This document shows positions 8,184-64,000 of a stretch of DNA of 64,000 nt, in pieces (the stretch's first letter is position 1; every line of letters starts with the position of its first letter). This DNA comes from Patescibacteria group bacterium. Its GTDB lineage: Bacteria > Patescibacteriota > Microgenomatia > UBA10105 > UBA927. Both the position numbers and the translations under genes were made by a program. The notes beneath the pieces were generated by a model. It saw only the letters and a program-made list of their open reading frames with translations. It had not been told where the DNA came from and searched no databases. The stretch covers positions 76,466-140,465 of the forward strand of contig DATKGN010000008.1 in assembly GCA_035510735.1 (NCBI GenBank). Reading direction: 5' to 3'.

Positions 8184-8199
8184 ATGACAAGAAAAGACT

Positions 8200-21500: not shown

Positions 21501-21531
21501 TGATCAAAATATTTACAAAAGTTGTGCTACA

Positions 21532-22299: not shown

Positions 22300-22313
22300 T
22301 CCGCTCACTCACT

Positions 22314-24389: not shown

Positions 24390-24436
24390 TGCGCGTTTGC
24401 GCTAGACTGAGAGAACGACATGATGGCAAACGCGCA
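24390..24436 (+). promoter_or_regulatory. 11-bp perfect inverted repeat tgcgcgtttgc / gcaaacgcgca (25-nt spacer) in the leader of the 24499 gene
   Basis: Read directly at 24390-24400 and 24426-24436. A consensus SD, aaggagg, lies at 24357-24363 with no conventional ORF behind it. Confidence 0.35.
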
Positions 24437-24498
24437 TTTAGTGAGGTCGGAAATAACTGATACGTCGAGGGCATCACGCCGAACGGGTCTGAAAAAAT

Positions 24499-27901: not shown

Positions 27902-27949
27902 AGTTCCTCTATTCATCATGCCAGGCTAATTCATATTTATCAACCAACA

Positions 27950-30900
27950 TTATTGCGCCCTCATACTATTTGGCATTACCTGCTTTCCGCACATTTTTTC
28001 CAGCTGTGGATTTGAACTATGTGAATCAAGCAACCTGTTCACCGTATATAAATCGTTTATTGCATAATAATCCGTCTCCAACTTGCGTAATCCCTGATAA
28101 CTTAATTCACCTGGATCGAAATATAGCTTCTGTATAAGGAAACTAACGACGTCGGGTGATACTTTATCCAGCAATGCAGACATCGTTACCACATGATATG
28201 GTGATCCCATACGGTCGCTCAAATTATAATCATAGTAGATATTATCAAGAAGACTCATGGAATTTGCATCACCGTTGTGAATGGCTGCATAAACCTCAGG
28301 ATGAGCCTGAACCAAAAGCTGGTTATAAGGCAGCGAGGTTGAAAACGTATCAAGAATATTTTTACTCATCCAATATTCATTCATATAATTATTCATCGTC
28401 TCATCGCTGGTGCCCCATTCACGTTCCCGGGCGGCATACTTATAAAAATCGGCTAAATCTGCCACACTGGCATTTATATTGCCATTATCTTGTTCTAAAA
28501 ACAGTTCAAGAACATGAGAGGATGAGGTTGGCGCACCGCTTGTTTGAGACTCTTGTTCTATAAAGGAGGAGAGCATATCAAAATAATTGCGTCTCTGATC
28601 CGTAAGATCGGTAAAATGCCCGCTTCCCTGCATCCCATATAATAATCTTCCTAAATCATGAGAACCGTTAGATTTTGCTAAATATAACAATCCCATAAAA
28701 TTACTAGGACTCGTCTTACCTAAATACATATCAGCATTTGCGCTCATTAAATTCGTTTTATACTGCAGGATACTTGCTAAATATTCCGGCGATACGGTAT
28801 CAATCGGATTTTGATTTTTTAGGTCTGAAGGGGAAATATCAATGGATTTCGTAACGAATGAATAAAAATCACTTGTTGAAGTATAGCCGCCGGAACGGTT
28901 CCAATAAACGGCATTTCCTGGATGTGCTTCTTTATACAAATTAATGGAATCCTGTATCGTTTGTGAAAACGGCTGATAATATTTATTCGTCACTGCCGGA
29001 ATGTTTCCCGGCCGTATCACATTATATGCATTTGCAATTACATCAATTGGAAGCGCCAGGAGTGACGGCAAATGCCCGATTCCACTTAATATATCAGATA
29101 TTGCGGGCTGCGCGTTACATTGCAGTGCATCAGATCTGGTTAATAAAAGGAGTAAAAACGCTAATGAGAGTCGTTTACGGCGCTCATCACCTGGCCCTCC
29201 AAATTCTTTTGTCATAAAACCCCGGACATCATCCGAATAATGTTTTATCCAAATAAAGTTCCCTATCCCACCTAACCCTGATGTAGCTTTGAACCCGACC
29301 CGAATGGATATTGAACAGTTTGTCCCAACACTCGTTCCATCCTGGGCATACACGCGGGAGACAAGAGGGTTATAGGAAAAACAATCAGGATTATTTACTT
29401 TACTCAAAAAGCTCTTCACTTTTTCCCACACTCTCTGGTACCATGGAGGCTGAGTAGCCGGCGGAACGTAATTGTTCGGCGCTAATGAAAATCCGGAAAA
29501 CTTAGATTGCACACCGCCCGGACCGGACATGGTATATGGTTCGTTGTTTTCCTGTACGAATCGGAGTCCCTGCGCAGTGAAGCGCCAGAAAGGTTCAGGG
29601 TGTTTTAGTTTTTCCGTACCTATCGGAATGTGATAATCCAAGTAACCAATCCGTATAAGTACGGCAAATAGGACATTATTCGGTTCTAACGTAAATACCG
29701 CACCCTCTTTCATAACAGAGCTAACATACAGATTCATCATGCTTATATCTGACTCACTTCTTTCAATACCAAACCCTTTGGGACCCAGGTCAGCTGCTAT
29801 TTTACCGATTGCCGACACTGCATTGACGATGTATGCGCTTGCCATATCACGGGCATCGGATTGATTCACAGCCCCGTACATCTCTGATGTTGAATATCTC
29901 GGATCAATAATAAAGTGACTAAGCTCTTGAACTTCGACATCAGATAACATTGGTCTTACGGCATCAATCAATGTGCGAAACGTCGTATGACCATGGAGGG
30001 GTTCAAAGACGTTAAGATTTCCCAGATTAGAAGCAGGGATACCCGCGGGCATGATTCCAATCCGGTTGATACCTTTCCAAAATTCTTGTAAGAGTTCCCT
30101 TATTCCGTATGTTGTAGTAGACGGATTAATCGGTTGCGCCGAATTTTGCACATTTAACGGAACGAGCGGAGCCACCAGGGCTTGTGTATAAATACGCTCC
30201 CGTTCGATCGCCCATTGTTCGTCTTCCGGTACAAAACCGCGGAATTGACCGCTCGTCATATAGGCATTCAAGAGCAACGTTATTTGTTCATTGGTCAACA
30301 CGCCCGTTTTCTCGAAGATCCGACGCAACGTTCCGGTCAAAAAGCCTGGGTGTCTATCTTTTTTCACAGGATCGATACTTAAGAGCCAATTTTCTAAACC
30401 GGACGTCGGATTATCTATTCCTGTCCGATAATCAAGAAGGAGAAATTTTTCCCAAAGCGAAAAATTTGAAAGATCGGCGCGGGATAATTTTATGGTCGCA
30501 TCATCAGATGTTGCGTAATTTTCCGCAGCGCTCCTCGGGATACCGGAAAGTAACGCCAAGCGGATGGTGTGAAGCCTATCATAGCTGGTAGATGTATCCC
30601 ATTCACTAGGATTGTCCGTAAGCCACTCTTTTGGATCCGCAAGCGATTCCTCAGGGAAAACTCCTGTATTTGCCGGTGCGCGGATAACCTTTCCTGCTGC
30701 TTGAAAATTCAGAAGCGAATATTGTCCGTTTGCGTGCCGCACAACTCCATAGGTCGGATTCTTCCCTATTGCAGCAATAAGTAGCGCTCTATCCTCCGAT
30801 GAAAGCTTATTCATCCAGATGGTAAATTGTGTACTATCTTCAGGGTAATAACCGGCGTAGACTTTACGGACATTGTCAGTTTTCGTAATGACACTCTTTA

Positions 30901-33900
30901 CCTCGTCGGGCAAGCGGGAAAGAAGCTGATCATACGCACGTAAACCCTCCTTGGCATTTGCCAAATCTATGGGCAACGCGGACACATCCACTCCTCCAGA
31001 TGACTTTGGCGCGGGTGAAGGTTGGCTTGAATTAGGAAGTATAATTCGCAAGCCTCCCAGTACCCCACGCCGCCACCACGGAAGCCGTATGATAAGACTA
31101 CCTAGATACCGCTCCCATGATTGATATTTTGCAACATCGGTAGTTGTCGTGATTGGCGCTGTCGGGGTCAGTTTCATGAGCTGGGTCATCTCCGTATTGG
31201 TCACGCCATATTGCTGAATTAACCGAAGCGCTCCTCGGGTATCAGATGGATCAAGTCGTCCGCGCAAGTATTCCCATTCGTACGGCTCGCGTGCAAGTGG
31301 CGTACCGATCACATCAAAGAAGTATGCGCGCGTCTGTCGGGCATCATCCAATGCATTTGCCGTATCCAATGTACTGATAACCCCCTCAAGCCGGCTTAGA
31401 TTTACAGCGTCTGATTGATCCAAGCCGGTTGGCACCAGATCCATAATCGCTGAGGACACCGTCGGGCGGACGAGATATTTCTTCCCTCCTTTTTCAATAT
31501 ACGGAAGCTGGGTTAAGAAATACGACCGTAATTCTTCCAAATCACGTGCCTGACTCGCGTCCAAAAGTACGTACATATCGTTCGCTGCCTCGCGTTTTAT
31601 GAAAATATTTTTTACCCCCCACCGGTGGAAGAGAAATTGGGCATATTTTTCAAACTGCATCTGTATCACTTCGTCCCCTGCAGCATCCCCAAAATCGGTA
31701 TTAAAAGGCTTTATGAGCTGTCCGATGCTGAGGCGTACTACCAACAGTTTTGTCGGATGGGTGGCAATGCGGGATGATAAAATAGCATCAAACCGATCCG
31801 CAAACGCGGTAACGGTGACTGACTGGTCGCCCGACTCCGCGCGGAATGATTTTTCAAGATCCTGTGCTTTTTTATCCAGTACATCATCAACCAAAATTGA
31901 AGCCGCCAGTTGCTTAAGAAAATCCCGTATCGTCGGCCCGCCAAACGTTGATCCCATCTTCTGCTGTATCTCATCTGTGAGGAGGGTAAACAAACTATGC
32001 TGCTTTCCGATGCGATCAAGATCGGCAGGCGTATACGGCCAAGCTCTCTGGTCGGGCTGCAACACTTTTTCCATCGTCGTTAAGTCAGCTAAGCCCACCC
32101 CGTCTTCATCTTGAGGCGCCGGCACATACGGTGCAAAATGAACATCTATGGGTTTTTTGACAACGTTACCCCCTTCACGATACAACATCGGAAGGAGTTT
32201 CAATTGCTCGGTAACACTAGCCTCAACCTCCGCTGTAGACGTATTCTCCGGCCCGATGATGCCGTACGTATCGCCCTTGAGACGGACGATAGAAAAACCC
32301 GGACCTAGCGCTTTTTGTATGCCGTAGACGATAAGCCGAAGCGCATAATTCCCAAGCACACTCTGCCCGCCGTTGGCGTTCATCACCTGATTGATACTAT
32401 AAATCGTTTTGCCATCGATCGTGGTTATTATCTGTTTACCGGGCCCAAGAACAATCGGCAATGAACTCGAGCGCCATACTGGTTGCGGTATGCCGTCGGC
32501 ATCGTCAAGCATCTGCAGGAAGGCAGCGTCGACGAGTGGTCTTGCATCCGGCGGAAAATCCTCAATCGTCAGATGTGCAATCGATTGTTGGTGGAGCCGG
32601 TCGTAAAATCGTTCCGTGAAGAACGACAGGATGTCTGGGTGAGAGACCAGTTGCGCCACAATGCTTTGCCGCATCATTACGCGCGTCTTATCATCTAGAT
32701 ATGCATAATTGTTCAAAAATCCGTCAGCAATCGCCTCTGCCACCTGTCTTTGTTGCTCTACCAGAACGAGAGCTGCTTTCGGATCGGTATTTTGCGGTGG
32801 TGTGGGCGGATTAGATCGAGCTGGATTTTGAAACGGACCTGGTTGAACGATCGTCCTTGCGCCCGCAAACGTTAAACTGTTTTGCACGCTTTCCGGCACT
32901 ATTGACTGTACTAATGCCGACGTGCGATCGAAGAGATATTGCCACGTGCCGGGTTGAGTAAGAGCATATATTGAAGATGTAGCCACCCGCGGTAAACCTG
33001 GTATCCATGTCCAAAGTGGCGCGATCCAGTTTCCTAAAAATAAAAGACTATGTTGGACGAACGGAATCGCGCCGAAACCGAAATTCGCCCCTCCCGCCGG
33101 ATAGAGCACATCTAAATCATCGACCGATTTACTGATAAGGGTTATTAAATCCGCAACAGCCGCCACTTGTTGGTCCTTGGTAAATGCGTTGTATCTGGCG
33201 GGGTTGTTATCGACGATAAATTGCAGCACCTCGTCCTGGACTGATCCGGCAGGGAGAATGGACAATAGTTCATTTGCCACGCTTTGCATCTTCGTAATAT
33301 TCAGCTTTGAGCTCGTCATCGTCTGCAGGAACAGCGGAAACAGTTTGTCTCCTTCGAATCGGTATATATCTCGTAGGGTTGCGTTGACACCGGCCCTAAA
33401 GCCCTCTCGCTCAACGCGTAGTTCAAACGGATCTTCAAGTGTCGGCCACGAAAGATAATCTTGAATATCTGTACCCGCGTTTTCAAATTCTTTCTTCTTA
33501 TCCGGCACGATTTCCTGTGCTCGCAGTAATACGTTTTTAGCCCGATTACTTAGACTCGACATCGCCGTCGCATCCTCGGGAATTATGTTATAGCCTGCGC
33601 CCGAGAATATATTTCCGAATGCCGCCTGCTTTTCAGATTGGATTTGCGCTTCGGTAACATCGCGGAATGCTGCGACCGTAACTCTTCTCCCCTCATCCAT
33701 TGCAATATATTTAAGCGCTAACTCAGCTAAACCCTGTAATTCCCTTACTCTTTGTAATTTCTGACTATCATTTAAATCGCTATAGGGCCTTATTTTATAA
33801 CTTTCGAGTACATTATTTATATTTGTTTGAAAATCCTGAGGGTACTGTGGCAACTCAAATGATAAGGCAACGTACATGTTGGTCACAATTTGCGGATCTA

Positions 33901-57900: not shown

Positions 57901-60900
57901 CGGGCGCCGTATCCTTGAGGGCTGTTGTCGTAAACACTACTGGTATGTTTGCCGTGGTCTGGTTAATTATTTTTTGCGCATACGCACTTCCGCCGACTGT
58001 TCCCGCGATAAAGCCATTAAGCGACGTCCCGGTAAAAATGGTTGCTAATGCGTCTATCGTCGTTTGATAAGACGCGAGTTGATTTGTTTGTGCCGTGGGA
58101 ACATCCGGAAGCCGGAGCGTTGAAGGCAGCTTCCGTATCGCATCCTGTTGGACGACCGGCACCGCGACCTTGGCGCCCGATTTAGGCAGTTTATTCACAA
58201 ACATCGCGATTCCCGATGTATCATCAATGGGTTTATTGCCGATTAATTGTGCCACCCTGCCGACCATTTTACTTGCAGCCATATCCGGCGTAAGACCATT
58301 ACCGCTTAAGATATTAAACACTTCAGTATTAAAGCCGGCTCCGCGCCTGGCGTATTTCCGAAAACCATCAGACAGAAGCATCACCCGGTCTCCCTCGTAC
58401 ATTTGGTACATTTCGATATTCGCTCCCCAAAATAATGTCGATCCGAGTCCATTCGGGAGATTCCCCTCCGCCTGGATAAGCGGAGAACCGTTGATTACGT
58501 CCGCACTTGCACGCCGCAGGGTATTTAACGGATATATTCGTCCCTCACGCAGAAGCATCATATCGCCGTCACCAACGCGGATGGTAATGAGACGCCCTGA
58601 CGGATGGATAAATGCCCCAGAATAGATGGTTCCCGCGTTTTTATCACCGAATTCGTTAATCATCTCGCCATTTACATCCTTCATCTGTGCCTGAAGGAAC
58701 CCGGTAACCTCAGGTAGCGGCAATTTCATTGCAGCTTTTTGAATTTGTTGCATGCGCGCCACAACATATTGCGCGCCTTCCGCTGACCGCGGCCGTTTGG
58801 ATGCACCGTCTGCATCACCAATGGAATATACACCGGGCTTTGTTGTGATCACGGCGTCCTGACCCATCGTTTTTGAAGCCTCCGGTTTATCTGTGTGATA
58901 GGCCGTTCCTTTACCCTTTCCGACTAAAACGTCTGTGACCCCTGTTACATCAGATGCATCAAACACACTCGCGACGCCATCAGCGGTGATATGCAAATAA
59001 TAGGTGCCATTAAATTCGGTAAAATCAATCTCTCCGTGATTATTAATCTGTGCTATCCATTTCGTACTCCCGATTTCGATTATCGATTTATCCTGAATGG
59101 TCGTTTGTGCTCCTATGGCCGAAACTCTTCCGTCAATAACGACGACATTATCAATATTCGGAATTATGTAGAAACCGGTTGGCGTATGCCCAAGCGTAAA
59201 CGCATTCGCCGGTATGGTCACATCTGCTATCCGGATACCTGCGTCTTTTCCTGATCCGATTGTTGTATCCCACGTATCAACCACGGGCTGCACGGGAACG
59301 ATGGTAACACTCCCATCCTCGTAAATTGCGATAAATTGTGATCCGTCAGTTTTCCAAAGATACGGCAATCCATCGGCGTCAATCCTAAATGTATACGTCA
59401 GCAAATTCGGTAGGATTATTTTATCGATTTCATGAATGAGGGCTTGATCACCAATATTCATGGCGATTCCGTTGAGTGTAACATTAACTTTCAGAGCTTT
59501 AATATAAAAAGCTCCATTTTGATCCTGAATGATATATATTGAATTATCTCCGATTAGCTGAGATGTAAAGCCGGATTGTGGAGCTGCAGCGATCTGATCC
59601 CGTGCCGCCTGGATAATGGCATCGACTACCGGTTGATTGATAAGCGGGCGGAGCTCGGTATTTGATGGACCTCTCCTCCCCCTCACGCCGGCCGGTATCG
59701 TATTAATAAGCAGGTTTCTGACAATTTCCTGTGTCACCGATAATTGTGTGTTCGGCGCTTGTAAGGATGTTACTGCCGCATCAACCGCCTGTTTATATGC
59801 CGCATCCGTGGATGCAAGAGCATTGAGGCGTGCAATGGCAGCCGTAATGGCCGCGCTCATCGTTGTCGGCGCCGTTACCCGGCCCTTAGCGCTAACGAGT
59901 TTCCCTTTAATTTGCACAAGCAGACTGGGCAACCAACGGTCACCGGTAGTTTGACGTGCGATTCTGTCAATTATTGCACTGGCTTTATCATAGTTTTGTT
60001 TTTGCGTCGTAACAGAGGCCCCGGTTGTAGTCCCATTCAATGCATCATAAAATGCATTTTTATCATCTATCGACCGGAATAACCCAGTGTACAACGTATT
60101 TGATAGTGCATCATTAACATATTCCACAATACTTTGTGCATCAAGCGTCAGCGTCGGTCCGGTCGGTCCCGCTGTATTAATTGCTTTCGTCAGCGCACGG
60201 GAGGCTTTCGCGATATCACTCCCCCGTTTGATGAGACTGGTAAACGGATGTGCATCCGTCCAGTTCGCTTTCATGTAATCGATAAGCTGTTGATACGGGG
60301 TGAGCGTTGTACTCGGGGCCGCAGCCGCAATCTGATCGTTAATCTCGACAGATAACGCGCTTAAGAATGCCCGCACTCCACTCACAACATCTGACACTTG
60401 AGCACCAAGAGTTCCGAGCGGAGAATTAATTGACGGCTTGCCCTGCAATTGAATATGTAAATCATTCCACGCACGAATTGCGGCGGCAAGATCCTGACTT
60501 TCGTTCATTACTTTATTGATCATTCTTGTCGACGTCCGCTTCTCGACTCCTAACGTGGTAAACCAATTCGTGAGATATGACTTTTCCAGAGTTGCTGTGT
60601 AGAGCGGATTTGCGACAAACGCATCCCGGAGTTGAGGGGAAATTGACTCTGTCGCGATTGTGATAAGTGCAGTCTTCGCATCCGTTAATTGCGATTTTGT
60701 GATAAGCGCGCGGCTTTTCATCGACGCCGTTAAATTATTCAGATTCTCCCACGCATTGATTTGGATAGCCACCTCATCTACCGGATGAACGCCTCCGGCG
60801 CTGATAAAGGTTCTTATGTTCTCCATCATTTGATGAGCCTCCGCAACCGGATCAGGTGGAGTATTAATAATGAGGTCATATTCAGCCTGAGCTGCCGGCC

Positions 60901-63900: not shown

Positions 63901-64000
63901 GATTTGAGGCTGTTTTCCCTTGAGCCACTAGTATGTCATTCCGGATACTTAGGCCAAAGAGAGCGATGCCGATAATCCCTACGACGATACCCCCCGTCGT
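27950..64000 (-). CDS. Giant multi-domain membrane-anchored protein (at least 12,015 aa in window; 5' end beyond window)
   Basis: A 35,979-nt reading frame with no stop; the track gives 11,992 aa from the first in-window Met at 63928. The frame stays open to nt 64000, where it encodes ...TTGGIVVGIIGIALFGLSIRNDILV, a TM-like helix. It contains recognisable catalytic-domain motifs, TM clusters and low-complexity linkers (see sub-features). Confidence 0.9.
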   Translation of the reverse strand, partial: TTGGIVVGIIGIALFGLSIRNDILVAQGKTASNPLTKTIQWINSVPTKQQYEDDFGMLMPTQETAGLLGRRDNTFFKWFNATPFGIGQPGWNLGYAFSKYGVAETVRFVFGHVFVGTITAPINPVIGVVQALGWQWDPFTRILASTVAQYGMLDMLKMHISSTTFGPYSKTAALIGGFGVRAPIYTVLISSPDPVSKWILAGFVAHDLARFIPGINHLLTGQPTSLPPPTGTHTGFNALLRKLPGFNPTTKKYNELPWYVKWMWSDNPLPKGVKSLRDLLLATPKTHPAWYNVSRRIIPAALYGIGVIYTLGNPLPPTLPWALKSFALPNVFDLIRISFTPGGWYEFSKSDPYQQHAVALAEAAVNAEAAVTKDKIYMGATKLLTIIAAESDIDGVETTAAITELKTYMKTYVYPSIALFNKDAQFTKDLPGIRKLAHQLLLVRALVIPFADGKAKDWVGAIADGLRATPPQTDDAIIAPIITQIVAAIKSAIPDAANRPSDTIVTLQAKDFINGRLGQIKRWENALKPDSRLSNTNDVATLTNQVKAFVGIAAGENPVYYEKWVAYAAQKKAATMPTAVPPGVGPVALPTQNEANAGHARYRAFLAGLPGTVRQQIKDDINLELVFTGIIAERSNGLAQPNRTILMSAINRVAGMSAFEVTTPAPSSSNILVIINLAAVERVMKLPSNLNLFPSVDWTNVALWMQNHPQDWFQNGLPEGNMRYGVLSGYPRSITEKFVRFQALKIRLSSLSPEDLTKLSDHWAGRVVLPRADVLAILQKVAVLTPDDRNFMADDHILPQPLMGDGFNADDDAYMLWIGQMLNISRAFTPVAAASDADIANAANELLKDENNLTNAVNVAQAQTVIETALNSLTFPDAAAKAAELARALAAANVKAIQIHSARVAFRGYVTTQRPGLIADLFAGQTVPAAVTSRKAAFELVPQFTALKALEPTVIADTYITAEANNIVTDIGSFPTITNVTSMVQAGAQALVAGGDSAARDAAITTELNRAVPRGTRAQDVYDAWIAHELLSLWPAAQAEYDLIINTPPDPVAEAHQMMENIRTFISAGGVHPVDEVAIQINAWENLNNLTASMKSRALITKSQLTDAKTALITIATESISPQLRDAFVANPLYTATLEKSYLTNWFTTLGVEKRTSTRMINKVMNESQDLAAAIRAWNDLHIQLQGKPSINSPLGTLGAQVSDVVSGVRAFLSALSVEINDQIAAAAPSTTLTPYQQLIDYMKANWTDAHPFTSLIKRGSDIAKASRALTKAINTAGPTGPTLTLDAQSIVEYVNDALSNTLYTGLFRSIDDKNAFYDALNGTTTGASVTTQKQNYDKASAIIDRIARQTTGDRWLPSLLVQIKGKLVSAKGRVTAPTTMSAAITAAIARLNALASTDAAYKQAVDAAVTSLQAPNTQLSVTQEIVRNLLINTIPAGVRGRRGPSNTELRPLINQPVVDAIIQAARDQIAAAPQSGFTSQLIGDNSIYIIQDQNGAFYIKALKVNVTLNGIAMNIGDQALIHEIDKIILPNLLTYTFRIDADGLPYLWKTDGSQFIAIYEDGSVTIVPVQPVVDTWDTTIGSGKDAGIRIADVTIPANAFTLGHTPTGFYIIPNIDNVVVIDGRVSAIGAQTTIQDKSIIEIGSTKWIAQINNHGEIDFTEFNGTYYLHITADGVASVFDASDVTGVTDVLVGKGKGTAYHTDKPEASKTMGQDAVITTKPGVYSIGDADGASKRPRSAEGAQYVVARMQQIQKAAMKLPLPEVTGFLQAQMKDVNGEMINEFGDKNAGTIYSGAFIHPSGRLITIRVGDGDMMLLREGRIYPLNTLRRASADVINGSPLIQAEGNLPNGLGSTLFWGANIEMYQMYEGDRVMLLSDGFRKYARRGAGFNTEVFNILSGNGLTPDMAASKMVGRVAQLIGNKPIDDTSGIAMFVNKLPKSGAKVAVPVVQQDAIRKLPSTLRLPDVPTAQTNQLASYQTTIDALATIFTGTSLNGFIAGTVGGSAYAQKIINQTTANIPVVFTTTALKDTAPDLAQKVRDLKNTAPKDLKTPLENLAKALDALNPTKPQTSTVEAVVAAFTPKGINPAVAKIIRKFIEDLLSGPSSLPSMALVNNISKALQSEVTGALWRSILGIARKAGNNEEIINLAIGTIASNADRVQIIQSNLKILQQALRVNTTNYESWGGVKVDLDQFIQDQQTRLVKPFILMNIAGKDADKSSQREELAYAYGKWLYDSLSAQYDADSTAADEQMSGLTMTNRIVTSEITSLANKYYTIQPNKLADTFRQSIYNSLSKKSGIPVSTYQDVQGNNNLVMFPLIKDALRQAYHQAGFSPALAPMIKQLQKAASAPVKSRGDLEADLLRAQFKIITADPVFQKVQPLFTDPVSLFDRWIQTAEGGSITTPVFYDESIIGGLGARLRDIRTTLRLEPSGTGLNTLVTNGQHLLTTTLAPINISIEQFAKSLGYSDTTSLLTDMINGDGVHSADATTDIIIEKLKNGTMKDLMDFYNGFIQAFNSMNSPIAENDLTRTKNLLASAIAQFSSEVPPATFQYTDTTSILRDPVEKRVAAFLQYLIDQSLTKAVKPTTPVVKPPKTTARAAAKTQVKQTQSQLAKVVNALKSINVSLNGFTITAVDRATLITQLQNDILPLINDRIASLQSVNALTRLQQALESAVLPIYRVYGLERDIQSLISEISLKIEAIQLAKKTKPFPATIESLPPTLTDQERDIYNNSIKLNGPKSPAEQVIADKAVARFNAITLLPPREAARLPDSEYQQWTNVHGLQTEKVDISRLDLVSQLVDADIARGEDFSLQALRSRLLASQLTTNRNDLLNSGSYTQENVDAQIAQNTQINYQLQGFIVKVEAAIPSDRTSYDALVTSVQNAKLLSVRRLPSTAKQSTIDTALTTLRGQIVDAVVKSVVQDITNAISTTGTTTLTASNVITILGSYNITLTADDLTALDFAISGAQAKGKELYTQKHDAIQAYFTVSRRRVSIIRAILANEAAGGRYDVSNLINWSGRPSLDSADPDQSTLFQNILVGLHTDAIGMLSALNTAFVQERNSIQTDAVAADDPDGLVVSRITAIADVSQFNGKPIPATIQAWWINVTVADQLAIIKPVLDKVKQKQTDTEEIFRSVPRSITEGWFSAPNIADVTIAIGQVATDPDLASLRTQATRLQERIQDARARIASGIVDDALHAVWYAGLNRMTDSGQSAQVIEQHLTAMGVLLTSISTGAYGAENTTWTTALLDQTLESEFAQGQKDGLALAADTLVTDTLQPLLEGDFRSAVKAWRNGDKGVQGLQSLLGEVAALVDTKIDADGITIRQLTNLDKLLRGIEDGLADQTGLTGIIQASINVQQLIDHIQAHITLINTTILNDTLTTPPIITINNTTYAKSTATKNKLTRGSLSSLLADVVKSGPIAVRQSHYSLGTDGGFGADDTTDYPVISSSNLRDWENALIEKYQDEKNGGVVSIRPVAESELTYYFLFAGTLSDGTNTWQRYVPSEVELPQSWRTATVNAVPYVAAERTALNPLLTAWRSEDVNGIIDVSTHKADETGIAFGSYKQVPISSDLDKNISEQIQPGDFVRLHLGSNEPIVVRFMGKVGENGQNVWQHYIAATAQADLDKLKKANRPATLDMLNALKDDGVSVDDYLENYRYIDPVRRSTDFHELVLMTRFASDLTRELHQQGLMTDVGILYENQESALERIPATELETTYQKTGNAYTMAIHILKSNELDMLGLTFINPNQFLVGSDNLPPVLTETRNNLLGTSGEQTIPVLAMIVAKQTNQGIGTKVISAIETVAKDTYHFGGMGMWSLKNAAVLNLADGLNFRTGESQNNLDSLQRNAAPEQMYTLFDGTTMSVPAVDPILRKAIDEKQQAIVTLAKRAIALGSVDAITGTYSFTKLQSIVTMLEEQTARTVASKLFARLPAGWKGNPQVEQMFIDALLSGTIPIASLNDLARATPAELKSIQQAINTLAKASGNFPDFLARLPIFVRVIGSTNINQIPQALSQTQLAINALEKNTSLPAEVKKATTLHDFIDLTDVNVIVQNELFNSLLGANAGSTPAESTARITQQYGINTSEFANLLAAVTEYEWGRKQDILNNDQSEVIIRDQMAALLSARNDQFGLLSQAEQNNIIAALRVSYPDSMSLEHMTTDFTPGGKRADVLGVLDTYGGRVNTSVFASVILHTPDRPYDWPTIYAQSSAVKQILYQVSDKNTQELYGEAFTLLKQAISLAGGDNTVWSVMRGDIDVAINAMIVLTTNLPQVAVPQGLPDFSPNNKVEANFNENDVRKFVASLHLPAGEDERYVQEILTNQITFRTDMVTTAFEDIQNAYLPEPKEYTPEEINRLIIMATYGPFAQSLSNVTFISASLMMHPWPNVMALLKAGSIIGSRGQSINTDFGQNQPDASEFQTGVREALQYSNFASTEEYARAHIAGWLLDTILTVQEYHEAHGSLDSLQKQAVTLGKIDSDISQLLRSDLSSETIQSSLQTIYQELRTLMPAGSKFPANASKAIDALIQSIENYQKPPTNPESPSSPPGGGAPPTGTKPPGGGGSNAGPTETNGGTTTGTDQQQIATRLLFFRLIGLWTEQKQQELHAANELAMMDILGPGPVLTQYVNGASDTVIRQTIQERLTYFGVTDTLLTQAIAGKNQEAVITDLDQLLVSMYADQKLSRADLKVAMNEYLTNPGESKTAFVLANIVGPTDTAAIQQFIAEIGNPLDESMRNLTGETIAARLVQNADARDASIVNQIAHELSSLHDVPTVVAQVTRARSIVETRQAQQAQLTLREQQKQALEAQLLDAEAQWQSSSVISADDTRALIAGSEALAKERAVHESAAARVVTSPIVSALLPALYLESNLAAARTTGDILYHAAASKSPQQVIIDRVVTALEIARRPVFINYVDLLLSLQRTLLDDPSVRSAITTGSRDQIDNALREYLRQNGVADGVLASANVDENLWIASTRNALLRVLAAIEEKQANNNAQTAQAAQLTAQLTMFQRVNDYISKTGWNLFKKGDYSNLSKELQIVLFRPEEEDFTQNPDLLYLDNFVRSVVDQAMRTGDVAGLQWNTVLAAFEKNADIQATYATASQREQAKSILHFLFAVHVQEGLQALLATHPRGDKNYVFANILPMQTIGWRLHFVKATQDGIQLSWIVSPSDFKRYVYASSLQIGFDPQILQNGVDPQIKMFIGNDRVPLTVDNTITVQMQDGSQINVLLRRTNATNYELVIRAKGDTNDVVVPVQFPKPLSSYAPQRRPIPTGAYVFAALGIASVALTILTFGSAVPFSIGLLSWIGFVTTGILITPTLFSVIAPPEYTTLPDAAKYTTKQLLESKPVVANSPVSGNQVNTTTGVVANPSTVTNANVGNTQVNVPSNKNISPSEQISQQIASQRQLLNTSLTSFASDLKGVSQNYSNLEFSSDDVATMNTVATTIQSYVSGNQTDTNHITQYINTFLSTDVGQKYLEVSTRSVTGEQIRQTNYQNLQAALTSQATQIQNKYFTNDKHAVVSISVIDLNTGKIFGVNDSVHMTMDSNLNTVKVYALISLLEQQGLSGQDLLNYSPQGFNGMTVSQIIDSQLAQRKGEQKVATQLTQYLSTSSVSNQVNNLLATIGMSDTDLTSNTSTTADIMKFWSYYNAHPIQDATVSQAMTQSLTLLNEDLRTSDWWSHQDEQGYLLSILNYRGGFVPKGSGYDNLLNQKGFSSIQTKDPFAINLFSSYTDSPHLWIRENNSGIIQLPNGQRFGVSMAINGDNLSHRDFNFIEGASLLDYETAHLGATIATAFDTGMAYLQQNRAQTATAYYDGERGQQGWGKLSNVADVSSRISGTIIEPGKSVNIANIAFGKTMPTHFVVYNGLNGSGICTDAATLGTAIEQTGIDGLFVKPGYALHEPFDHEPFLAGWYGNLSNYSFSTGFPYVVVNNSDKRLKIVYTSNYFTLDESKPNTAVLNPWFANNGYILGKNAPTDSTNNIVPDSLEVINKESFKITAWVLEVDKTGNPIPNSPINQKYFASLNNQPAIDANSQVNIKTINNVIVQVNTLQGQLDQLSLQTNPSQASLANSTTGASSNSQPLSVQAAPRVDKNLLSLIANYSRQTPMTYSPSDIANIPSLADAQLNPIQPISTPNGLNVDSLGQLKKDHPVYTTPFGQHVIENNGKYYDADTGAYITNDPSKIYVQVANSLYENKYLRNPNLPNVILNDQDLQSKAWKGILIALDSELQIIGKNKGRDYSRDAIEIIFQSGSTQEKVDALNAIHAAISIVDPYTETTAARSPQTYHIPDAIGVGACGDQSTLAQAYLSTMGIPSSVTWLAIRDAHAVVTTVIDGTRYAMDFSFSNEIGADTTLYSSENFDALKKKYPGVAMGETDMIQRYFAGAGGQGVRQVVTVPFDIFLKEFYLPNNPDSKNMSLLPVTTVGVGSLFVPLSEVNSHTLDLSTNFALHVNNPSLFTDELALMRESLKNQTNDFVQNELPYVIHEDKGVVKTLVDSIRTKLQEDIRNRATSVTTVVHTIGNFFVPKVTMNVTDTVGTNGKSVSRSVNYVRKEQDDMVKFIRTEYSGELTFTDAIAAEEARITKSGRPVKFLVSEFMNEVMKTGKHVSGSEKNTRIIRAVALFDLVLQANKGKSFTDAQLFAIYDAIASDHIAVQLPTGTGKTYAAACVALVRSLFQSGVLVSSANVDLATRDLHDVSDLFSVFGVPSGVVDKGQYLTPNVPIIYGKLTDIAQAYSLALQSGVNIPLADYTLIPDEGDKSVLQEALTPIVRTGQAAEAENLSTIEMNVLSALAGKMQGWAGNRDYYTFDPEDITLSSLTPKAIAELSILQPTGMSDDTFAGYVEFAREASLMKEGVDYLYDQTTGEITILDDEQITDADKKFQSGLQWALEAKHGRTQNFTQISDTTFDLQTTMTFVREAGSVVIFTATAFQEGNELETYYGLIPKAIPFPLYISMAKQNQNNPEYLLVQLYDQASKQWIYSVVHKQSGAWVILEKDRVDYSPRLFITDSAKEQALGQDSQSIRAQHRAVLVAVKNEGALSALRSTAAFANAIFISERAGGDKAENIARAGTSGNIAVGTANIGRGVDFQPDQQVREAGGFFELISGLQKSSTLEQIRGRVGRLIPVSKGKDQIRSWGATRQYISLDDLKEVLGANDARILNLENGLSGEILPSDSRYASFMALVDEAETTIQNREQVARETQFLSDNANDQMIATNRTDALKGFGAARQTYDWMLQRIINATGAKDVKDKYLQAAGDAWKQYLQNLEELKTTAWMGAMNEKIDQPVYYANRSSQLLRDLIAQILKTIPVDTIASGYAIRTGDTCKGSMANCVVEAIITQRAIESIDRSDISVTEKLRLLNIFTPNRSDVTPNQYVQHLARISAERARINPSIKTSQSPSFISSTIDTIGNFIKDHFRGIAAVAGFPLVTAAAYFIIKALESNGARITAAVAAAGAVISPVIMTALPTVGILAGIAGIGTLAYFAFRAPMIRRRATVLLIGLTLAAIVAGYFSTIQNNRNSASLPSQVNNVQVVQQQKPSVNTINPQVNPVNPVNPANSAVNPVAGNNEQVGNNSTSQQQNAPPAVNQQPIQPPASVSQEVVVPQSAVAPVAQSATNVQVAADNSLSVANVPGSINRHVYTSQVDKFGGAVMKILDDWQNDPTKRNAISASDALRQGLKANGFADMADKLEGTSAYTFLDFTSTGFSNEEVQCIAFANIMQQSGLTDFPGGINDFSTIGGAVAKQIVGNDLNNSPAGIVYVKGQYAVQRVQSQADLDAGLGHFIVLYNKGSKEPGHILFLLSDKTADGKYRVYDANYLDDGTVNVNGIKTIKSDGEVRYSELTFDEFVNKYGTIAPGPGKSQIAIVLTKEEAQAATQMAQNSVLPVGFLAGTLLKLSDAFGSLIFRSQLLAGLVERYRNRKAIVKVTTVQSTARNAAVTVLFNRFQQLNVQWQTQEQAKSLSLPNIITFFRYWAGALKSLNQLASQLSQYRNIQFVPQINTVTLKQAVEVKTTNAKTSVKKAKPARPGVRLAPTFKIDPSIALAAVRAGQPLRNVALPAKDYIRQKAKAIRRQACGVGAMHLVPAVYAAGGTVGGAGCVVGHIIDAAEPIVEAAMDAPIITAIDASGITAEAQPNTTSTKENSSDYIDWSIVENSVQNAVSEFQKSGVKPKYITEESVMQGLQSFQQLLDSLPLETRKSLDYTTFIRVATGLIPVGYMNNSIDFSQDQLQQLQSYFKKYLGVLLLTSSKGTYILVNIKAVTAVIEENSALFPSGLASSPTRTIEQEIAKIMFAAKMTPELINLTSLLEGFPVIPHQQSHLETVLRNSVATEVSPETERPTIDELITILNQTQKVTPRTQAEKDTLRREMEKYKSLIPWIDQSLISTRMTTKWYGAQYVTEDQRKEIEIYERFDQRIMDGWVAAQEGVPTDVINNDLRSSGLISGLYRREAYSDFIGAQRKYGLPKLLLPTIIRTATIDDPISFVVKTISMFHRTLENTIARDNSSTFWEKTKYRVLYIPIFFLTSLMSGYSNNSSGAVRVSIFPATAFLYFYAFRAPPNPLTLIPDTVLLGIQPFTIPAAIQHELTHASVVSNQFRINFTNNLPNETFTDYFHEEAVQHASLYKKVSYILLHLESVIVGYFRSHGPIEYVLTSVDQLAGLPPGSAQIAFGHSYFAAPGHEADFFQLLERVVGDDSNEVWNILNSSQWSPLKMRRLKAIFARHALSNDSCIPTESFFGLVFAQTPSCALQPGGRYKAHAIDQDGTVAPTGTMMTVPIAGRWWKVGDKVKNWFAWRFGTQPTVAADEQIDISSGLSNQPIMQVDGGDLGTGQEPVRAISQIQPKPQVQDPVQVVQQAVLTKRITELDQIDFTSVNAPQEVRRIVENQYGLMSDTERGPPDQMEIVISLVVTTIVTRYQHLPLLSTSQTNVIDQNLLREQLTAADVIDDPDSKKIDPEYLDDSTGKAMVSALSKLANAVANHSFVTRIDVANSPEYSDLRKAVFTFTKKFYGAAESQNLYIRPELVANVALEAVGAPETLKQIPGRVVPGQLLKRSPGALEYQQILDKAKHDFAIELSQGKFTEADLEQFIRDKVQIVTINGVDVTVISANHDTYGSFVDPIIEAYIRNQRTKAIVDEYVGPDVLPSLQTGLVQSIYGSALVEDSRFRFDRSVSNIARDVHKPLLATDIANKPLYMAMRGDDIGVLTTGVTLARYLLPSISFLRDVVFTGLVSPLVQFHALHFVIVKAMVIFGVGAFDPNNIHWYEAILTHLEDARRIFAAEGIALATKEFEATPGSTDTNQIIVLYPSAHAIRIVDNLAQQNPVVRVLTSIKRLIYRLTPFLDFSVRRWEWSDTQTGPLKDDQELRGWIKVSENKLPWFSSTITDQSALGNCSPFSFNLFGVVFAQTPSCALKPGNRYKAYAIDQNGVVAPTATDMTVPIAGRWWKVGDKVKNWFAWRFGTQPTVAADEQIDISSGLSNQPIIQVWGEDVVGGQAQNQPPVLADKPDPKRQTKIFADGQYWLNSQLTEIRPYVEPGYLLQTDYVGAGKKADWIISSTQRSKDVWINGVPVITHTSEPIHIKNNDLIETPSGFWRVNIDANQTMHVVPVITNAPSSVTLSSSAFLDALMVASHQGLDEQAKQSIRQTIDQLVTLYIQPDVHSATQRSNQLYYDSVPLARLSPATSGRQTYDLKNAEVIKVDTSVETITEAYIWLFFPQFRKNLARVTGWGMVADTTADTKYIREARVVPLKSFGPIDELVKSIADVHRYVPDAAIADQEIKALLLPYGIRKEEDIVRVRELLDFMGNTLKAGDVRLDQMGYQDDGTLVIFDWGNTNMLAVAGQAADNDYNFAQYFDFETYVQKRAAEEKKAALQAQTNTTATVGCDTPIGLIPSVFAQNGKLPCITLTPGQKIMATEIINGRLGKKKEMELPLAGWYGVITEEGKSVGHVSQFMAILDPQIRVPTTESILVGDIWARKYDLNNAVMLVDGKDLVPGAVGNAPQPVKPQPIAAPKIPPLLPENNTETAQSIIQTIRAYINSPSIDPQIVTNMYVALSFELPQYPQDFQTNINNVLESYKIRPYSDLNDSQKLQRVRELQGLAELALKYIAMDEGRRVTVAAFRDVTEAQIQSEKQAAFGNIFSGAGYNIIPEDATAMSSLSNRAKNVLLRAQEIVPDKKKEFENAGTDIQDYLSWPTLEDPFELRVEREGFRAGVNATLRDIYRFEGDKLFPLFLQTMTSSKLNITKMQSVANELLSILPAGSVQDEVLQFIVDNNPARYNAFTKDQQVAAVADLITLISKSVDDLDVLYPAGGANFGFGAIPFVQHSLLFLGNWIAPLWTWIPGLPRVATSSIYALTQPGTWQYLFDRTSALVQSIVPESVQNSLTFAGARTIVQPGPFQNPARSNPPTPPQNTDPKAALVLVEQQRQVAEAIADGFLNNYAYLDDKTRVMMRQSIVAQLVSHPDILSFFTERFYDRLHQQSIAHLTIEDFPPDARPLVDAAFLQMLDDADGIPQPVWRSSSLPIVLGPGKQIITTIDGKTIYSINQVMNANGGQSVLGNYALRLIVYGIQKALGPGFSIVRLKGDTYGIIGPENTSTAEVEASVTEQLKLLPMLYREGGNVVKKPIDVHFAPYVPAPQDEDGVGLADLTTMEKVLQPDQRAWPYTPADLDRIGKQHSLFTLLTDEIQQKMGSTFGGPTIRDFLKQLAASILVDDVLDKKAQDLEKSFRAESGDQSVTVTAFADRFDAILSSRIATHPTKLLVVRLSIGQLIKPFNTDFGDAAGDEVIQMQFEKYAQFLFHRWGVKNIFIKREAANDMYVLLDASQARDLEELRSYFLTQLPYIEKGGKKYLVRPTVSSAIMDLVPTGLDQSDAVNLSRLEGVISTLDTANALDDARQTRAYFFDVIGTPLAREPYEWEYLRGRLDPSDTRGALRLIQQYGVTNTEMTQLMKLTPTAPITTTTDVAKYQSWERYLGSLIIRLPWWRRGVLGGLRIILPNSSQPSPAPKSSGGVDVSALPIDLANAKEGLRAYDQLLSRLPDEVKSVITKTDNVRKVYAGYYPEDSTQFTIWMNKLSSEDRALLIAAIGKNPTYGVVRHANGQYSLLNFQAAGKVIRAPANTGVFPEESLADPKEWLTDNPSEWDTSTSYDRLHTIRLALLSGIPRSAAENYATSDDATIKLSRADLSNFSLWEKFLLLDYRTGIDNPTSGLENWLLSIDPVKKDRHPGFLTGTLRRIFEKTGVLTNEQITLLLNAYMTSGQFRGFVPEDEQWAIERERIYTQALVAPLVPLNVQNSAQPINPSTTTYGIRELLQEFWKGINRIGIMPAGIPASNLGNLNVFEPLHGHTTFRTLIDAVRPMLSDVEVQELSHFIIDPRYSTSEMYGAVNQSDARDMASAYIVNAVSAIGKIAADLGPKGFGIERSESDISMMNLYVSSVMKEGAVFTLEPNNVLFAVLIRIGYLDYHIPIGTEKLKHPEPFWRFTAQGLRFVQENNEPYTMSGPGGVQSKFSGFSLAPNNYVPPATQPPWYQRVWEKVKSFLSKVNNPDCFSYNPLVSRVYAQDGTSVGTNCSISIRVGFKATSGLGGIGNFIWIKHYSDDVRGFMTKEFGGPGDERRKRLSLAFLLLLLTRSDALQCNAQPAISDILSGIGHLPSLLALPIDVIANAYNVIRPGNIPAVTNKYYQPFSQTIQDSINLYKEAHPGNAVYWNRSGGYTSTSDFYSFVTKSIDISPSDLKNQNPIDTVSPEYLASILQYKTNLMSANADMYLGKTSPSNFMGLLYLAKSNGSHDLGRLLYGMQGSGHFTDLTDQRRNYFDMLSSFIEQESQTSGAPTSSSHVLELFLEQDNGNINASVADLADFYKYAAREREWGTSDETMNNYMNEYWMSKNILDTFSTSLPYNQLLVQAHPEVYAAIHNGDANSMSLLDNIYYDYNLSDRMGSPYHVVTMSALLDKVSPDVVSFLIQKLYFDPGELSYQGLRKLETDYYAINDLYTVNRLLDSHSSNPQLEKMCGKQVMPNSMRAQ
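35585..35830 (-). repeat. Intragenic repeat copy A (giant gene)
   Basis: See copy B. Flanks are ~80% identical and the core is 100% identical. The protein repeat is FNLFGVVFAQTPSCALKPGNRYKAYAIDQNG.... Confidence 0.9.
37570..37815 (-). repeat. Intragenic repeat copy B (giant gene), ~245 nt with an 89-nt core identical to copy A
   Basis: Core 37595..37683 = 35610..35698 exactly. It encodes MTVPIAGRWWKVGDKVKNWFAWRFGTQPTVAADEQIDISSGLSNQPI within a ~100-aa protein repeat (FFGLVFAQTPSCALQPGGRYKAHAIDQDG...). Confidence 0.9.
40550..40900 (-). other. Possible papain-fold Cys-His peptidase/amidase-like segment
   Basis: EEVQCIAFANIMQ (Cys preceded by Gln) and, about 63 aa later, GLGHFIVLYNKG (His). 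Spacing and context resemble CHAP/NlpC-P60-type folds. Weak. Confidence 0.25.
41500..41800 (-). other. Cluster of ~4 TM helices in the giant protein, followed by a Q/N/P/V-rich linker (41,150-41,450)
   Basis: GIAAVAGFPLVTAAAYFIIKAL...AAVAAAGAVISPVIMTALPTVGILAGIAGIGTLAYFAF...ATVLLIGLTLAAIVAGYF. The linker has PQVNPVNPVNPAN, encoded by the tandem ccgggttaaccggattaaccgggttaacc. Confidence 0.6.
42650..44100 (-). other. Divergent SecA-DEAD / SF2-helicase-like P-loop ATPase domain within the giant protein
   Basis: Walker A QLPTGTGKTYAAAC at about 44,030-44,060. DEAD-like YTLIPDEGDKSVLQEALTPIV, as in SecA, near 43,745. IAVGTANIGRGVDF at about 42,760-42,800, matching SecA TNMAGRGTDI. Motif VI LEQIRGRVGRL. 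Confidence 0.65.
44950..45250 (-). other. Transglutaminase-like cysteine-protease core (Cys-His-Asp) within the giant protein
   Basis: AIGVGACGDQSTLAQAYLSTMGIPSSVTWLAIRDAHAVVTTVIDGTRYAMDFS follows the TGase-core pattern G.C...a.....lr..GIP.R.V.G......HaW.ev.......D. Confidence 0.55.
46600..47500 (-). other. Possible penicillin-binding/beta-lactamase-fold (D-Ala-D-Ala carboxypeptidase-like) segment, degenerate
   Basis: AVVSISVIDLNTGKIFGVNDSVHMTMDSNLNTVKVYALISLL resembles the l.DantGkvL...paSltKlmTayl start of S11/class-A folds, and a later VPKGSGYDN resembles K[ST]G. There is no canonical SxxK, so this may be inactive or mis-assigned. Confidence 0.25.
48040..48215 (-). other. Transmembrane hairpin (2 TM) in the giant protein, followed by an N/T/V-rich low-complexity linker
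   Basis: AYVFAALGIASVALTILTFGSAVPFSIGLLSWIGFVTTGILITPTLFSVIA. Confidence 0.6.
58330..58900 (-). other. PP2C (PPM)-type Ser/Thr phosphatase-like domain within the giant protein (approx. residues 1680-1870)
   Basis: GVYSIGDADGA (motif 1 region), GTIYSGAFIHPSGRLITIRVGDGDMMLL (motif 2, GT..a....vGD), DRVMLLSDGF (SDG motif), and IDDTSGIAMFV (C-terminal D-[DN]-x-[ST]-v-i motif). Confidence 0.6.
63929..64000 (-). other. In-frame hydrophobic helix upstream of the first in-window Met of the giant ORF (likely N-terminal TM anchor; true start outside window)
   Basis: Manual reverse translation of 63929-64000 gives TTGGIVVGIIGIALFGLSIRNDILV with no stop codon. Confidence 0.5.

Follow-up and report, generated by a model that had tools for sequence, protein, structure and literature searches.

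The 64,000-nt stretch analyzed here (hereafter the window; nt numbers are positions within it) belongs to contig DATKGN010000008.1 of assembly GCA_035510735.1, a Patescibacteria group bacterium. It carries the 3' 36 kb of one genuine giant gene (27950..64000, minus strand) of an uncultivated candidate phyla radiation (CPR) bacterium, and of its identity as a single gene we are nearly certain. The product is one of a family of giant multi-pass membrane proteins that evolve fast, are non-repetitive and poor in cysteine, and have so far turned up only in Patescibacteria-type genomes; the shared hallmark of the family is an internal SecA-type ATPase with intact catalytic motifs. Taken as a whole, the best explanation, which we hold with moderate confidence, is a membrane-anchored cell-surface protein that would export its own segments by means of a SecA2-like motor acting in cis. 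The cis-export part of this explanation is itself tentative, and we would place it somewhat below an even chance.

The portion of the gene within the window consists of 12,016 codons plus a stop codon at 27950-27952. Minus-strand frame 0 contains no stops over 27953-64000, whereas the remaining two minus-strand frames over the same stretch contain 687 and 805. At the base composition of the gene the probability of a stop is 0.057 per codon (about 1 per 18 codons), so that a stop-free run of 12,016 codons would arise by chance at ~1e-305. GC content at codon position 1 exceeds that at position 2 in all full 1,000-codon bins of the open reading frame (ORF), the exception being the final partial bin (16 codons), and the adjacent genes have the same pattern. 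The first canonical start within the window is a GTG at 63928, giving 11,992 aa, with the frame still open to the window edge. The single giant coding sequence claimed in an earlier reading of the letters alone (the sequence-only reading) is therefore there as counted. An alternative genetic code was ruled out, as the adjacent genes terminate with TAA, TAG and TGA.

On account of its minus-strand orientation, the gene has only its 3' end in the window, the 5' end lying past nt 64000. The upstream extension that the sequence-only reading had called for was obtained from the JGI metagenome contig Ga0182021_10001297 (28,415 bp; hereafter L002), of which 11.4 kb was read. Over a 1,368-nt overlap at the window edge, L002 is 100% identical to the window, and on it the ORF stays open through 10,000 further nt, or 3,333 more codons. 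This brings the protein to at least 15,349 aa and the gene to at least 46 kb. Residues are numbered here from the window edge, such that aa 1 is the edge, aa N corresponds to nt 64000-3(N-1), and negative numbers lie on L002. With at least 15,349 stop-free codons, the protein falls within the "large" size class (≥ 10,000 aa) of West-Roberts et al. 2023 (bioRxiv 10.1101/2023.11.21.568195); the 15,349 aa visible, like the 14,485 aa of a complete orthologue described below, are short of the ≥ 30,000 aa set for "giant". In that orthologue, 7,819 aa precede an anchor point in the conserved core, as against 8,262 aa already visible in the window protein, and on this comparison the start of the window gene is probably not far beyond the end of L002.

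Could such a frame be an artefact, with shorter genes joined or collapsed during assembly, or stops erased by consensus errors? The point in favor of this is a repeat. The Logan assembly of SRR8676592 reproduces window 17194-35639 at 100% identity, and it stops, as does that of SRR8695230, at nt 35639, which falls inside an exact 89-nt direct repeat in the ORF (35610-35698 = 37596-37684); the repeat is the likely reason that the short-read assemblies fragment there. It sits in a 286-nt duplication of 84% identity (35542-35827 / 37528-37813), at a spacing of 1,986 nt or 662 codons. By self-BLAST, the duplicated copies extend over 37427..37867 (copy A, aa 8712-8858) and 35438..35878 (copy B, aa 9375-9521, holding the exact repeat at which the two assemblies break), both on the minus strand, with 64-77% identity between them. 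This is the only plausible site of collapse or expansion in the giant ORF, and the copy number of the 1,986-nt unit could be wrong there. However, because the unit is exactly 662 codons, the frame is kept whether it collapses or expands. The JGI and Logan assemblies are identical to the window wherever they overlap it, the adjacent proteins match an NCBI metagenome-assembled genome exactly, and the orthologue, a gene call of 14,485 aa from a 1.23-Mb contig, runs collinear with the window protein over 2,528 aa. Set beside the stop counts given above, now zero over 15,349 codons, these observations make an artefact extremely improbable. The independent assemblies and the collinear orthologue make a chimeric join very unlikely, so that this worry of the sequence-only reading is largely answered. 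Overall the protein is essentially non-repetitive: self-BLAST gave two internal duplications only and Tandem Repeats Finder one 29-nt array, which rules out a tandem-repeat adhesin.

The motor lies at aa 6600-7150 (42551..44203, minus strand) and comprises nucleotide-binding domain 1 (NBD1), the preprotein cross-linking domain (PPXD) and NBD2 (Pfam SecA_DEAD E 7e-10, P-loop_SecA E 8e-4). Its motifs are Walker A TGTGKT, Walker B DEGD, TATA, GRGVDF and the arginine finger RGRVGR. Alignment to canonical SecAs, to which the module is 21-27% identical, passes through the NVDLATRD segment, DEGD...EALTPIV, the PPXD segment, TATA (TGTA in SecA), AG..G.IAVGTANIGRGVDF and VREAGG; the arginine finger stands just past the end of this alignment. 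A three-sequence family profile matched PDB SecA at E 1.4e-40 over SecA residues 55-552 (NBD1-PPXD-NBD2), which together with the Pfam match bears out the divergent SecA-DEAD domain proposed earlier. The protein has the NBD1-PPXD-NBD2 core of canonical SecA/SecA2, with Walker A, Walker B and arginine finger, as well as the divergent SecA DEAD and preprotein-binding domains of the West-Roberts et al. class. Judging from these intact catalytic motifs, it contains a SecA-type ATPase that is apparently competent.

Which SecA the motor resembles most is less sharply defined. When the PDB was searched by phmmer with the SecA region alone, the best matches were SecA2 (4uaq, E 1.7e-8), and in PDB sequence searches with single tiles of the giant protein SecA was the only match. 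The NCBIfam SecA/SecA2 models matched at E 1e-20 to 1e-16, far under the cut-offs for true SecA. The nearest relatives of ordinary size were the 779-791-aa SecA of Lactiplantibacillus/Paenibacillus, a 645-aa SecA-like protein of Pirellulaceae and Campylobacter SecA. On these matches the module appears to lean slightly toward SecA2, with no specific affinity among the ordinary-size relatives.

It is not a free-standing soluble SecA of ~750-1,000 aa with helical scaffold and helical wing domains (HSD/HWD) and a two-helix finger. The module is embedded in the protein at aa 6600-7400, and its sequence gave no sign of the HSD or the HWD: SecA_SW matched only at E 0.82, and SecA residue 552 is where the PDB profile match ends. 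Behind the motor is a helical region (41852..42487, minus strand; aa 7172-7383), predicted as a 64-residue helix followed by further helices. An AlphaFold2 model, built from a 7-row alignment that included canonical SecAs, had a mean predicted local distance difference test score of 73.5, and about 60-80 in the post-motor helical region; Foldseek aligned ~850 columns of it to full-length SecA with a TM-score of 0.61-0.64 normalised to the target. In this model the post-motor helices may represent a remnant of the scaffold domain.

Relatives were sought by a HMMER scan with aa 6501-7400 as the query over 1.84 billion representative proteins, which gave 1,019 matches. Only two proteins among the best 150 of these exceeded 2,200 aa, and no giant protein from any other lineage was among those 150. 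The first is MCL4200211.1 (7,694 aa; HMMER E 8e-241), named [quoted passage not shown] at NCBI. Its identity to the window protein is 49% across the query and 39.6% across a collinear core of 2,528 columns (BLASTP 1,693 bits). The start annotated for it is a scaffold-gap artefact: on JAHDXG010000014.1 (GCA_023382895.1; L091 1-1110) the frame is already open where the contig begins and continues across a short run of N into the annotated gene. MCL4200211.1 makes up the C-terminal portion of the product of a 14,485-aa gene, which lies on a 1,228,992-bp contig of GCA_048499835.1 (L100) and takes up 3.5% of it. The second is a 7,844-aa protein, encoded by a complete gene of GCA_040960765.1 (JBFOMR010000026.1; L088 10001-33535). 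A scan of GTDB representative genomes with the SecA region found no relative. In a word-indexed protein search, the SecA region retrieved four weak canonical SecAs, and the upstream 1,000 aa and core aa 5330-6560 retrieved nothing; this search missed the 39-49%-identical MCL4200211.1, which is present in its collection, so its negatives are not trustworthy here.

The conserved family core, collinear with MCL4200211.1, spans aa 4929-7390 (41831..49216, minus strand) and consists of a transmembrane (TM) hairpin, ~1,200 aa of other domains and then the SecA-like module. The 7,844-aa relative is laid out differently. A signal anchor stands at its N-terminus, the first ~900 aa are rich in Cys, a Cys/His module at 6831-7073 directly precedes SecA, and the SecA module is at the extreme C-terminus, where the protein ends. 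In the window protein the order of these two modules is opposite, with a TM cluster between them. As a side observation, cysteines cluster terminally in the relatives, namely in the N-terminal ~900 aa of the 7,844-aa protein and in the C-terminal ~550 aa of MCL4200211.1.

The locus is conserved as well as the protein. At all related loci, as in the window, the giant gene is beside a gene for a YfhO-like membrane protein; in two of the loci a short gene stands between them (a 241-aa ORF in the window, PIG-L in L091 and L100). A gene with an NPCBM domain comes next wherever the contig reaches; the L091 contig ends inside the YfhO-like gene, and L100 has the same gene order. The YfhO-like and NPCBM neighbors in the window are 45-62% identical to their counterparts at the related loci.

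Transmembrane helices were called by Kyte-Doolittle hydropathy. Across the window and L002 the giant protein has four hydrophobic clusters with about 8-9 helices, in line with the TM segments expected by the sequence-only reading and with the "numerous transmembrane regions" of the West-Roberts et al. 2023 class. The first is a single helix at aa -1111 to -1082 on L002, ~1,100 aa upstream of a helix pair at aa -56 to 27. This pair straddles the window edge: its second helix is at aa 1-27 (63920..64000, minus strand) and its first lies just upstream on L002. The residues at the edge, TTGGIVVGIIGIALFGLSI, are hydrophobic, as had been pointed out, but the N-terminal membrane anchor that had been read into them does not hold, as the helix is internal, one of a pair, with the ORF continuing upstream of it for another 3,333 codons or more. 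The third cluster is an uncharged 58-aa hydrophobic stretch (48038..48211, minus strand; aa 5264-5321), probably a two-helix hairpin, which is conserved in MCL4200211.1. The last cluster, of 3-4 helices, is at aa 7411-7511 (41468..41770, minus strand), ~260 aa after the SecA motor, and directly behind it the sequence becomes a low-complexity linker rich in Gln, Asn and Pro (41096..41467, minus strand; aa 7512-7635).

Cysteine is scarce in the protein, with 19 residues in 15,349 aa (0.124%) versus 0.67% in 22 adjacent proteins, a depletion of about 5-fold (p = 7e-24). Past the last TM cluster, 10 of the 12 cysteines form five pairs, each flanking the motif C-x9-12-h-V-[FY]-A-[QA]-x4-8-C. A motif scan placed the five paired-cysteine loops at 39725-39796, 37781-37834, 35795-35851, 34316-34375 and 29315-29383 (span 29315..39796, minus strand). 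One copy of the loop is also present in MCL4200211.1, at residues 7150-7170. We also observed that three copies precede a small "xLxPGxxxKAxxI...PxAGxW" segment, and that the VFA|Q part of the loop resembles a signal-peptidase site, such that disulfide loops or processing sites are both conceivable.

Other than the motor, few domains of the giant protein could be assigned to families. A PP2C/PPM-type phosphatase domain lies at aa 1709-1901 (58298..58876, minus strand; Pfam PF13672 PP2C_2, E 1.6e-5); its score, 25.0 bits, is above the gathering cut-off of 24.0 but borderline, and the metal-binding Asp motifs GQDA, DADG, SDGF and DDTS were found by eye. At aa 10401-10926 (31223..32800, minus strand) is a tandem pair of GGDEF-like (palm) domains, for which the Pfam GGDEF match (E 0.003-0.012) is below the Pfam cut-off. 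A four-sequence family profile of this pair matched PDB GGDEF domains at E 6e-8, in agreement with a palm fold. The GG[DE]EF active-site motif is absent, being replaced by KGDTY and ANDMY in the giant protein; MCL4200211.1 has two copies of the pair, one of them with GGDEY. Diguanylate cyclase activity of the pair in the giant protein is unlikely, judging from these motifs. In the upstream 3,333 aa on L002 there was no family match at E ≤ 0.01.

Taking these features together, we propose the following arrangement. The giant protein would be anchored in the membrane through its helix clusters, with the SecA motor, the PP2C phosphatase and the GGDEF-like domains facing the cytoplasm. The membrane-tethered motor would work in cis, like an accessory SecA2 devoted to one huge substrate, and would drive the long extracytoplasmic segments of its own polypeptide through SecYEG. 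The best candidate for export would be the C-terminal ~4,500 aa, which open with the Q/N/P-rich linker and bear the paired-cysteine loops. The exported parts would probably be glycosylated by the many adjacent membrane glycosyltransferases of the GT-C type and may serve the cell surface or host interface of a likely epibiotic bacterium.

Several points weigh against this proposal. The topology derives from hydropathy only, and with four helices instead of three in the post-SecA cluster, the C-terminal third would be cytoplasmic, which is the usual site of GGDEF-like domains. All of the confidently recognized domains (SecA, PP2C and GGDEF-like, with GNAT in the orthologue) are typically cytoplasmic. 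MCL4200211.1 has no strong TM cluster after SecA and the 7,844-aa relative has nothing at all there; because in both relatives there is thus little or nothing placed after SecA and beyond a TM cluster, the notion of a motor that pushes what follows it fails for the family as a whole. The shuffling of modules between family members likewise argues against a single fixed layout of motor then cargo. Finally, no adhesin, carbohydrate-active enzyme (CAZyme) or cell-wall-binding domain was found over threshold in the giant protein.

The main rival is a mostly cytoplasmic, membrane-tethered mega-scaffold, in which the hydrophobic clusters would be anchoring re-entrant hairpins and nearly all of the chain (PP2C, GGDEF-like, SecA and the rest of the core) would remain in the cytoplasm. 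The SecA-like module would then serve other substrates as an accessory SecA2, or work as a general ATP-driven unfoldase or remodeller, and would not export its own polypeptide. Of the four clusters, two have the look of two-helix hairpins and would leave sidedness unchanged, and this arrangement would suit the cytoplasmic type of every confidently recognized domain. In addition, the 7,844-aa relative is almost free of cysteine and of TM segments from ~residue 900 to SecA, besides the missing post-SecA cluster of MCL4200211.1. However, cysteine depletion and paired cysteines are more typical of exported proteins in monoderm-type bacteria, and here a 5-fold depletion goes along with paired-Cys loops after the last TM cluster. 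The position of the Q/N/P-rich linker directly behind the TM cluster also argues against a cytoplasmic scaffold, as do the conserved neighbors, which are envelope-glycosylation genes. We regard the scaffold as unlikely, though a serious contender.

Another possibility, compatible with either topology, is that the product is a polyprotein precursor, cut by built-in proteases or by signal peptidase at V-F/Y-A|Q motifs into several separate proteins, some in the membrane, some secreted and some cytoplasmic. There are three protease-like candidates. The first is a transglutaminase-like cysteine-protease core at aa 6253-6329 (45014..45244, minus strand; GACGDQS...HAVV...MDFS), whose Cys and His are unchanged in the 39%-identical orthologue, with D/E at the acidic position; the match to Pfam Transglut_core (E 0.05) is sub-threshold. 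The second is a conserved Cys/His module at aa 7636-7879 (40364..41095, minus strand), with invariant QC..F, PGH and DANY, which is 28-33% identical to residues 6831-7073 of the 7,844-aa relative. It may be a papain-like hydrolase, and its profile found no match in the PDB. The third is a single HExxH motif (HELTH; 38258..38272, minus strand; aa 8577-8581), a metalloprotease candidate by motif only, with no family match. The five hydrophobic-VFAQ/VYAQ copies resemble AxA signal-peptidase sites, one of them kept in MCL4200211.1, and processing by internal peptidases has also been proposed for the Omnitrophota giants discussed below. Against this, all three protease assignments are sub-threshold or motif-only, and the VFAQ motifs lack the full hydrophobic region of a signal peptide and are flanked by cysteines, which fits disulfide loops equally well. 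A polyprotein is accordingly rather improbable in our estimate, and clearly less probable than a scaffold.

The sequence-only reading had likened the protein to the giants described from Omnitrophota and, by implication, had assumed an Omnitrophota-like host. Those giants have many TM regions and a divergent SecA DEAD plus PPXD without wing and scaffold, and self-export has been proposed for them (West-Roberts et al., bioRxiv 10.1101/2023.11.21.568195); the same work noted actinobacterial giants with SecA_DEAD, GGDEF and Ser/Thr phosphatase domains. Long Omnitrophota proteins have also been reported to include a cluster of 20 that share a SecA_DEAD architecture (bioRxiv 10.64898/2026.06.07.730766). 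The likeness is considerable. Like the "Archaeovorin" and "Dockerin-type" giants of Omnitrophota, the window protein comes from one ORF exceeding 10,000 aa, in a bacterium that is ultrasmall and probably host-dependent, and it has several TM regions; in both, a divergent SecA DEAD and PPXD stand beside TM helices, with wing and scaffold not detectable by sequence. It therefore falls under the architectural definition of SecA_DEAD giants (> 10,000 aa, TM, divergent SecA motor), from which it departs in phylum, size class, accessory domains and neighborhood. The earlier comparison stands for length, TM segments and SecA_DEAD, the PP2C and GGDEF-like domains also agreeing with that class, and falls for the host.

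As to the host, the Gfo/Idh/MocA, DegT, AlaX-type, PMT_2-like and 904-aa proteins of the window are exact matches to HUD19820.1-HUD19835.1 from a 184,161-bp contig, labeled "[Patescibacteria group bacterium]", and the closest giant relative bears the same label. By NCBI label, the host is a CPR bacterium and not a member of Omnitrophota. The organism is also present in several JGI, ENA and SRA samples. A scan of GTDB representative genomes with the DegT neighbor gave 553 relatives of ≤ 52% identity in many phyla, and scoring by shared neighbors was taxonomically uninformative.

Does the protein nonetheless act as proposed for the Omnitrophota type, as a giant that digests the wall of prey? Its architecture would be consistent with this: it is very long, contains TM segments, and combines a divergent SecA_DEAD lacking sequence-detectable wing and scaffold with Ser/Thr phosphatase and GGDEF domains. 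However, besides the Patescibacteria host and the absence of other-lineage giants among the best 150 of the 1,019 SecA-module matches, dockerin, TSP3, glycoside hydrolase, C39, S8, NUDIX and methyltransferase (methylase) domains, which are among those of the Omnitrophota giants, were not found in family scans of the giant protein. Nor did Pfam and NCBIfam scans at E ≤ 0.01 reveal any attachment or carbohydrate-degrading domain in it. The hints of wall-related functions are all sub-threshold, being the transglutaminase-like segment (E 0.05), the Cys/His module and a beta-lactamase-like segment (E 0.006). The latter is a weak class A beta-lactamase/penicillin-binding protein (PBP)-like region at aa 5508-5686 (46943..47479, minus strand; NCBIfam bla_class_A E 0.0064, Pfam Beta-lactamase2 E 0.32). 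This assignment fails, at 15.7 bits against a cut-off of 200 and with the SxxK lysine absent (S-N-L-N in both orthologues). A profile of the conserved core, including the beta-lactamase-like and transglutaminase-like segments, found no match in the PDB. The part of the earlier comparison that concerned attachment to prey and digestion of the cell wall thus lost its footing, no CAZyme, dockerin, C39 or adhesin domain having been detected.

Size and surroundings also differ. The window protein is ~15,000 aa (complete relatives 7,844 and 14,485 aa), whereas the Omnitrophota giants are 30,000-147,000 aa. Its neighbors are envelope-glycan genes (YfhO-like, NPCBM and PMT_2-like), whereas theirs are type II secretion system (T2SS)/pilus or CAZyme genes; in the visible part of the locus, the 28 kb downstream of the giant gene, there are no T2SS or sugar-import genes. 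No sequence relationship to the Omnitrophota giants was found beyond the generic SecA fold, and the two are likened by architecture and published description. A wall-digesting giant of the Omnitrophota type is consequently quite improbable. The actinobacterial giants share the same sparse set of domains (SecA_DEAD/PPXD, GGDEF and Ser/Thr phosphatase) on an otherwise unannotated giant; they belong to another phylum, none is among the best 150 matches, and they were compared by description only.

In Gram-positive bacteria, the accessory Sec system (SecA2, with or without SecY2) is devoted to the export of a small number of surface proteins, many of them very large and glycosylated. SecA2 structures and models fit the motor in the window about as well as those of housekeeping SecA, or slightly better, and the locus is rich in glycosyltransferases and encodes one very large presumptive substrate. 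Unlike in the accessory Sec system, the motor is fused into its presumptive substrate, the window has no SecY2 or Asp genes, and the protein is not a serine-rich repeat adhesin. We therefore offer the comparison as a functional analogy and not as membership.

Within the CPR, large membrane proteins with a proposed role at the host interface have been described. For example, the ten longest proteins of Vampirococcus lugosii are membrane proteins of 1,392-4,163 aa (PMC8080830), and Peregrinibacteria are enriched in proteins of more than 5,000 aa (PMC11573180). The window protein resembles these in its CPR host, membrane localization and proposed role. It differs in being 4-10 times longer than the Vampirococcus proteins, non-repetitive and without their WD40, PKD, integrin and fibronectin adhesion domains, and in possessing a SecA motor; SecA fusions are not mentioned in either paper. 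It is possible, if doubtful, that the fusion of motor and substrate arose independently and specifically in the CPR, that the gene takes up ~3.5-4% or more of a genome of ~1.2 Mb, and that the glycosylated product is the main structure for host attachment or feeding.

Giant SecA-bearing proteins have so far appeared in preprints, mainly from Omnitrophota and some from Actinobacteriota; new here is the same design in the CPR, in a conserved locus and with complete orthologues of 7,844 and 14,485 aa. If the SecA fusion is independent in the CPR, tiny bacteria living as epibionts or predators would have arrived more than once at the same solution, the joining of a motor to a huge substrate. The complete relatives, on long contigs, are more tractable for structure prediction, metaproteomics and topology than proteins of 30,000-147,000 aa, and bring the cis-SecA hypothesis within easier reach of a test. 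The family largely escapes standard pipelines: one fragment carries the GNAT name at NCBI, and the window product is absent from the protein collections searched.

The genes around the giant gene are mostly concerned with glycans and membranes. Directly downstream, 30 nt from its stop, is the 241-aa ORF (27194..27919, minus strand), with a signal-peptide-like N-terminus, no family match and no counterpart beside the giant genes of the relatives. Since it is on the same strand, 30 nt away, with no terminator-like site between, it is probably co-transcribed with the giant gene. Its 3' end overlaps by 20 nt (27194-27213) the convergent gene for the YfhO-like multi-pass membrane protein (24499..27213, plus strand; 904 aa, an exact match to HUD19835.1). 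The latter is 47-62% identical to the L088 gene and 45% to the L091 gene, and a fellow member of its 90% cluster is named "YfhO" by JGI. Next to it is a membrane protein with a C-terminal NPCBM domain (22287..24218, plus strand; Pfam NPCBM E 5e-34), 50% identical to the L088 neighbor. Rfam and tRNA scans of the window gave no matches. A phage or defense origin found no supporting matches and was rejected; PADLOC on the first 8,333 aa of the giant protein came back empty.

In the 28 kb downstream of the giant gene, genes for glycan synthesis and for GT-C-like membrane proteins predominate. The segment 1215-27213 is unusually crowded with large multi-pass membrane proteins whose family matches are weak or absent (1215-2597, 2582-4237, 9782-11428, 14074-15414, 17892-19820 and 19896-21500), joined by a PMT_2 membrane protein (16389-17891) and by the NPCBM and YfhO-like ones, and interspersed with three family 2 glycosyltransferase (GT2) genes, and it resembles an envelope-glycosylation island. 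Amid the glycan genes is a free-standing alanyl-tRNA editing protein (11433-12152, minus strand; NCBIfam AlaXM E 3e-44, 151 bits against a cut-off of 300), the only match in an NCBIfam scan of ten neighbors. A three-gene sugar-modification cassette occupies 6820-9776 on the plus strand, with a Gfo/Idh/MocA oxidoreductase (6820-7842), a 156-aa ORF (8200-8670) that by eye has the look of a hexapeptide-repeat acetyltransferase, and a DegT aminotransferase (8667-9776). Because the same trio occurs together in many unrelated phyla at 40-56% identity, it suggests a mobile diacetamido-sugar pathway.

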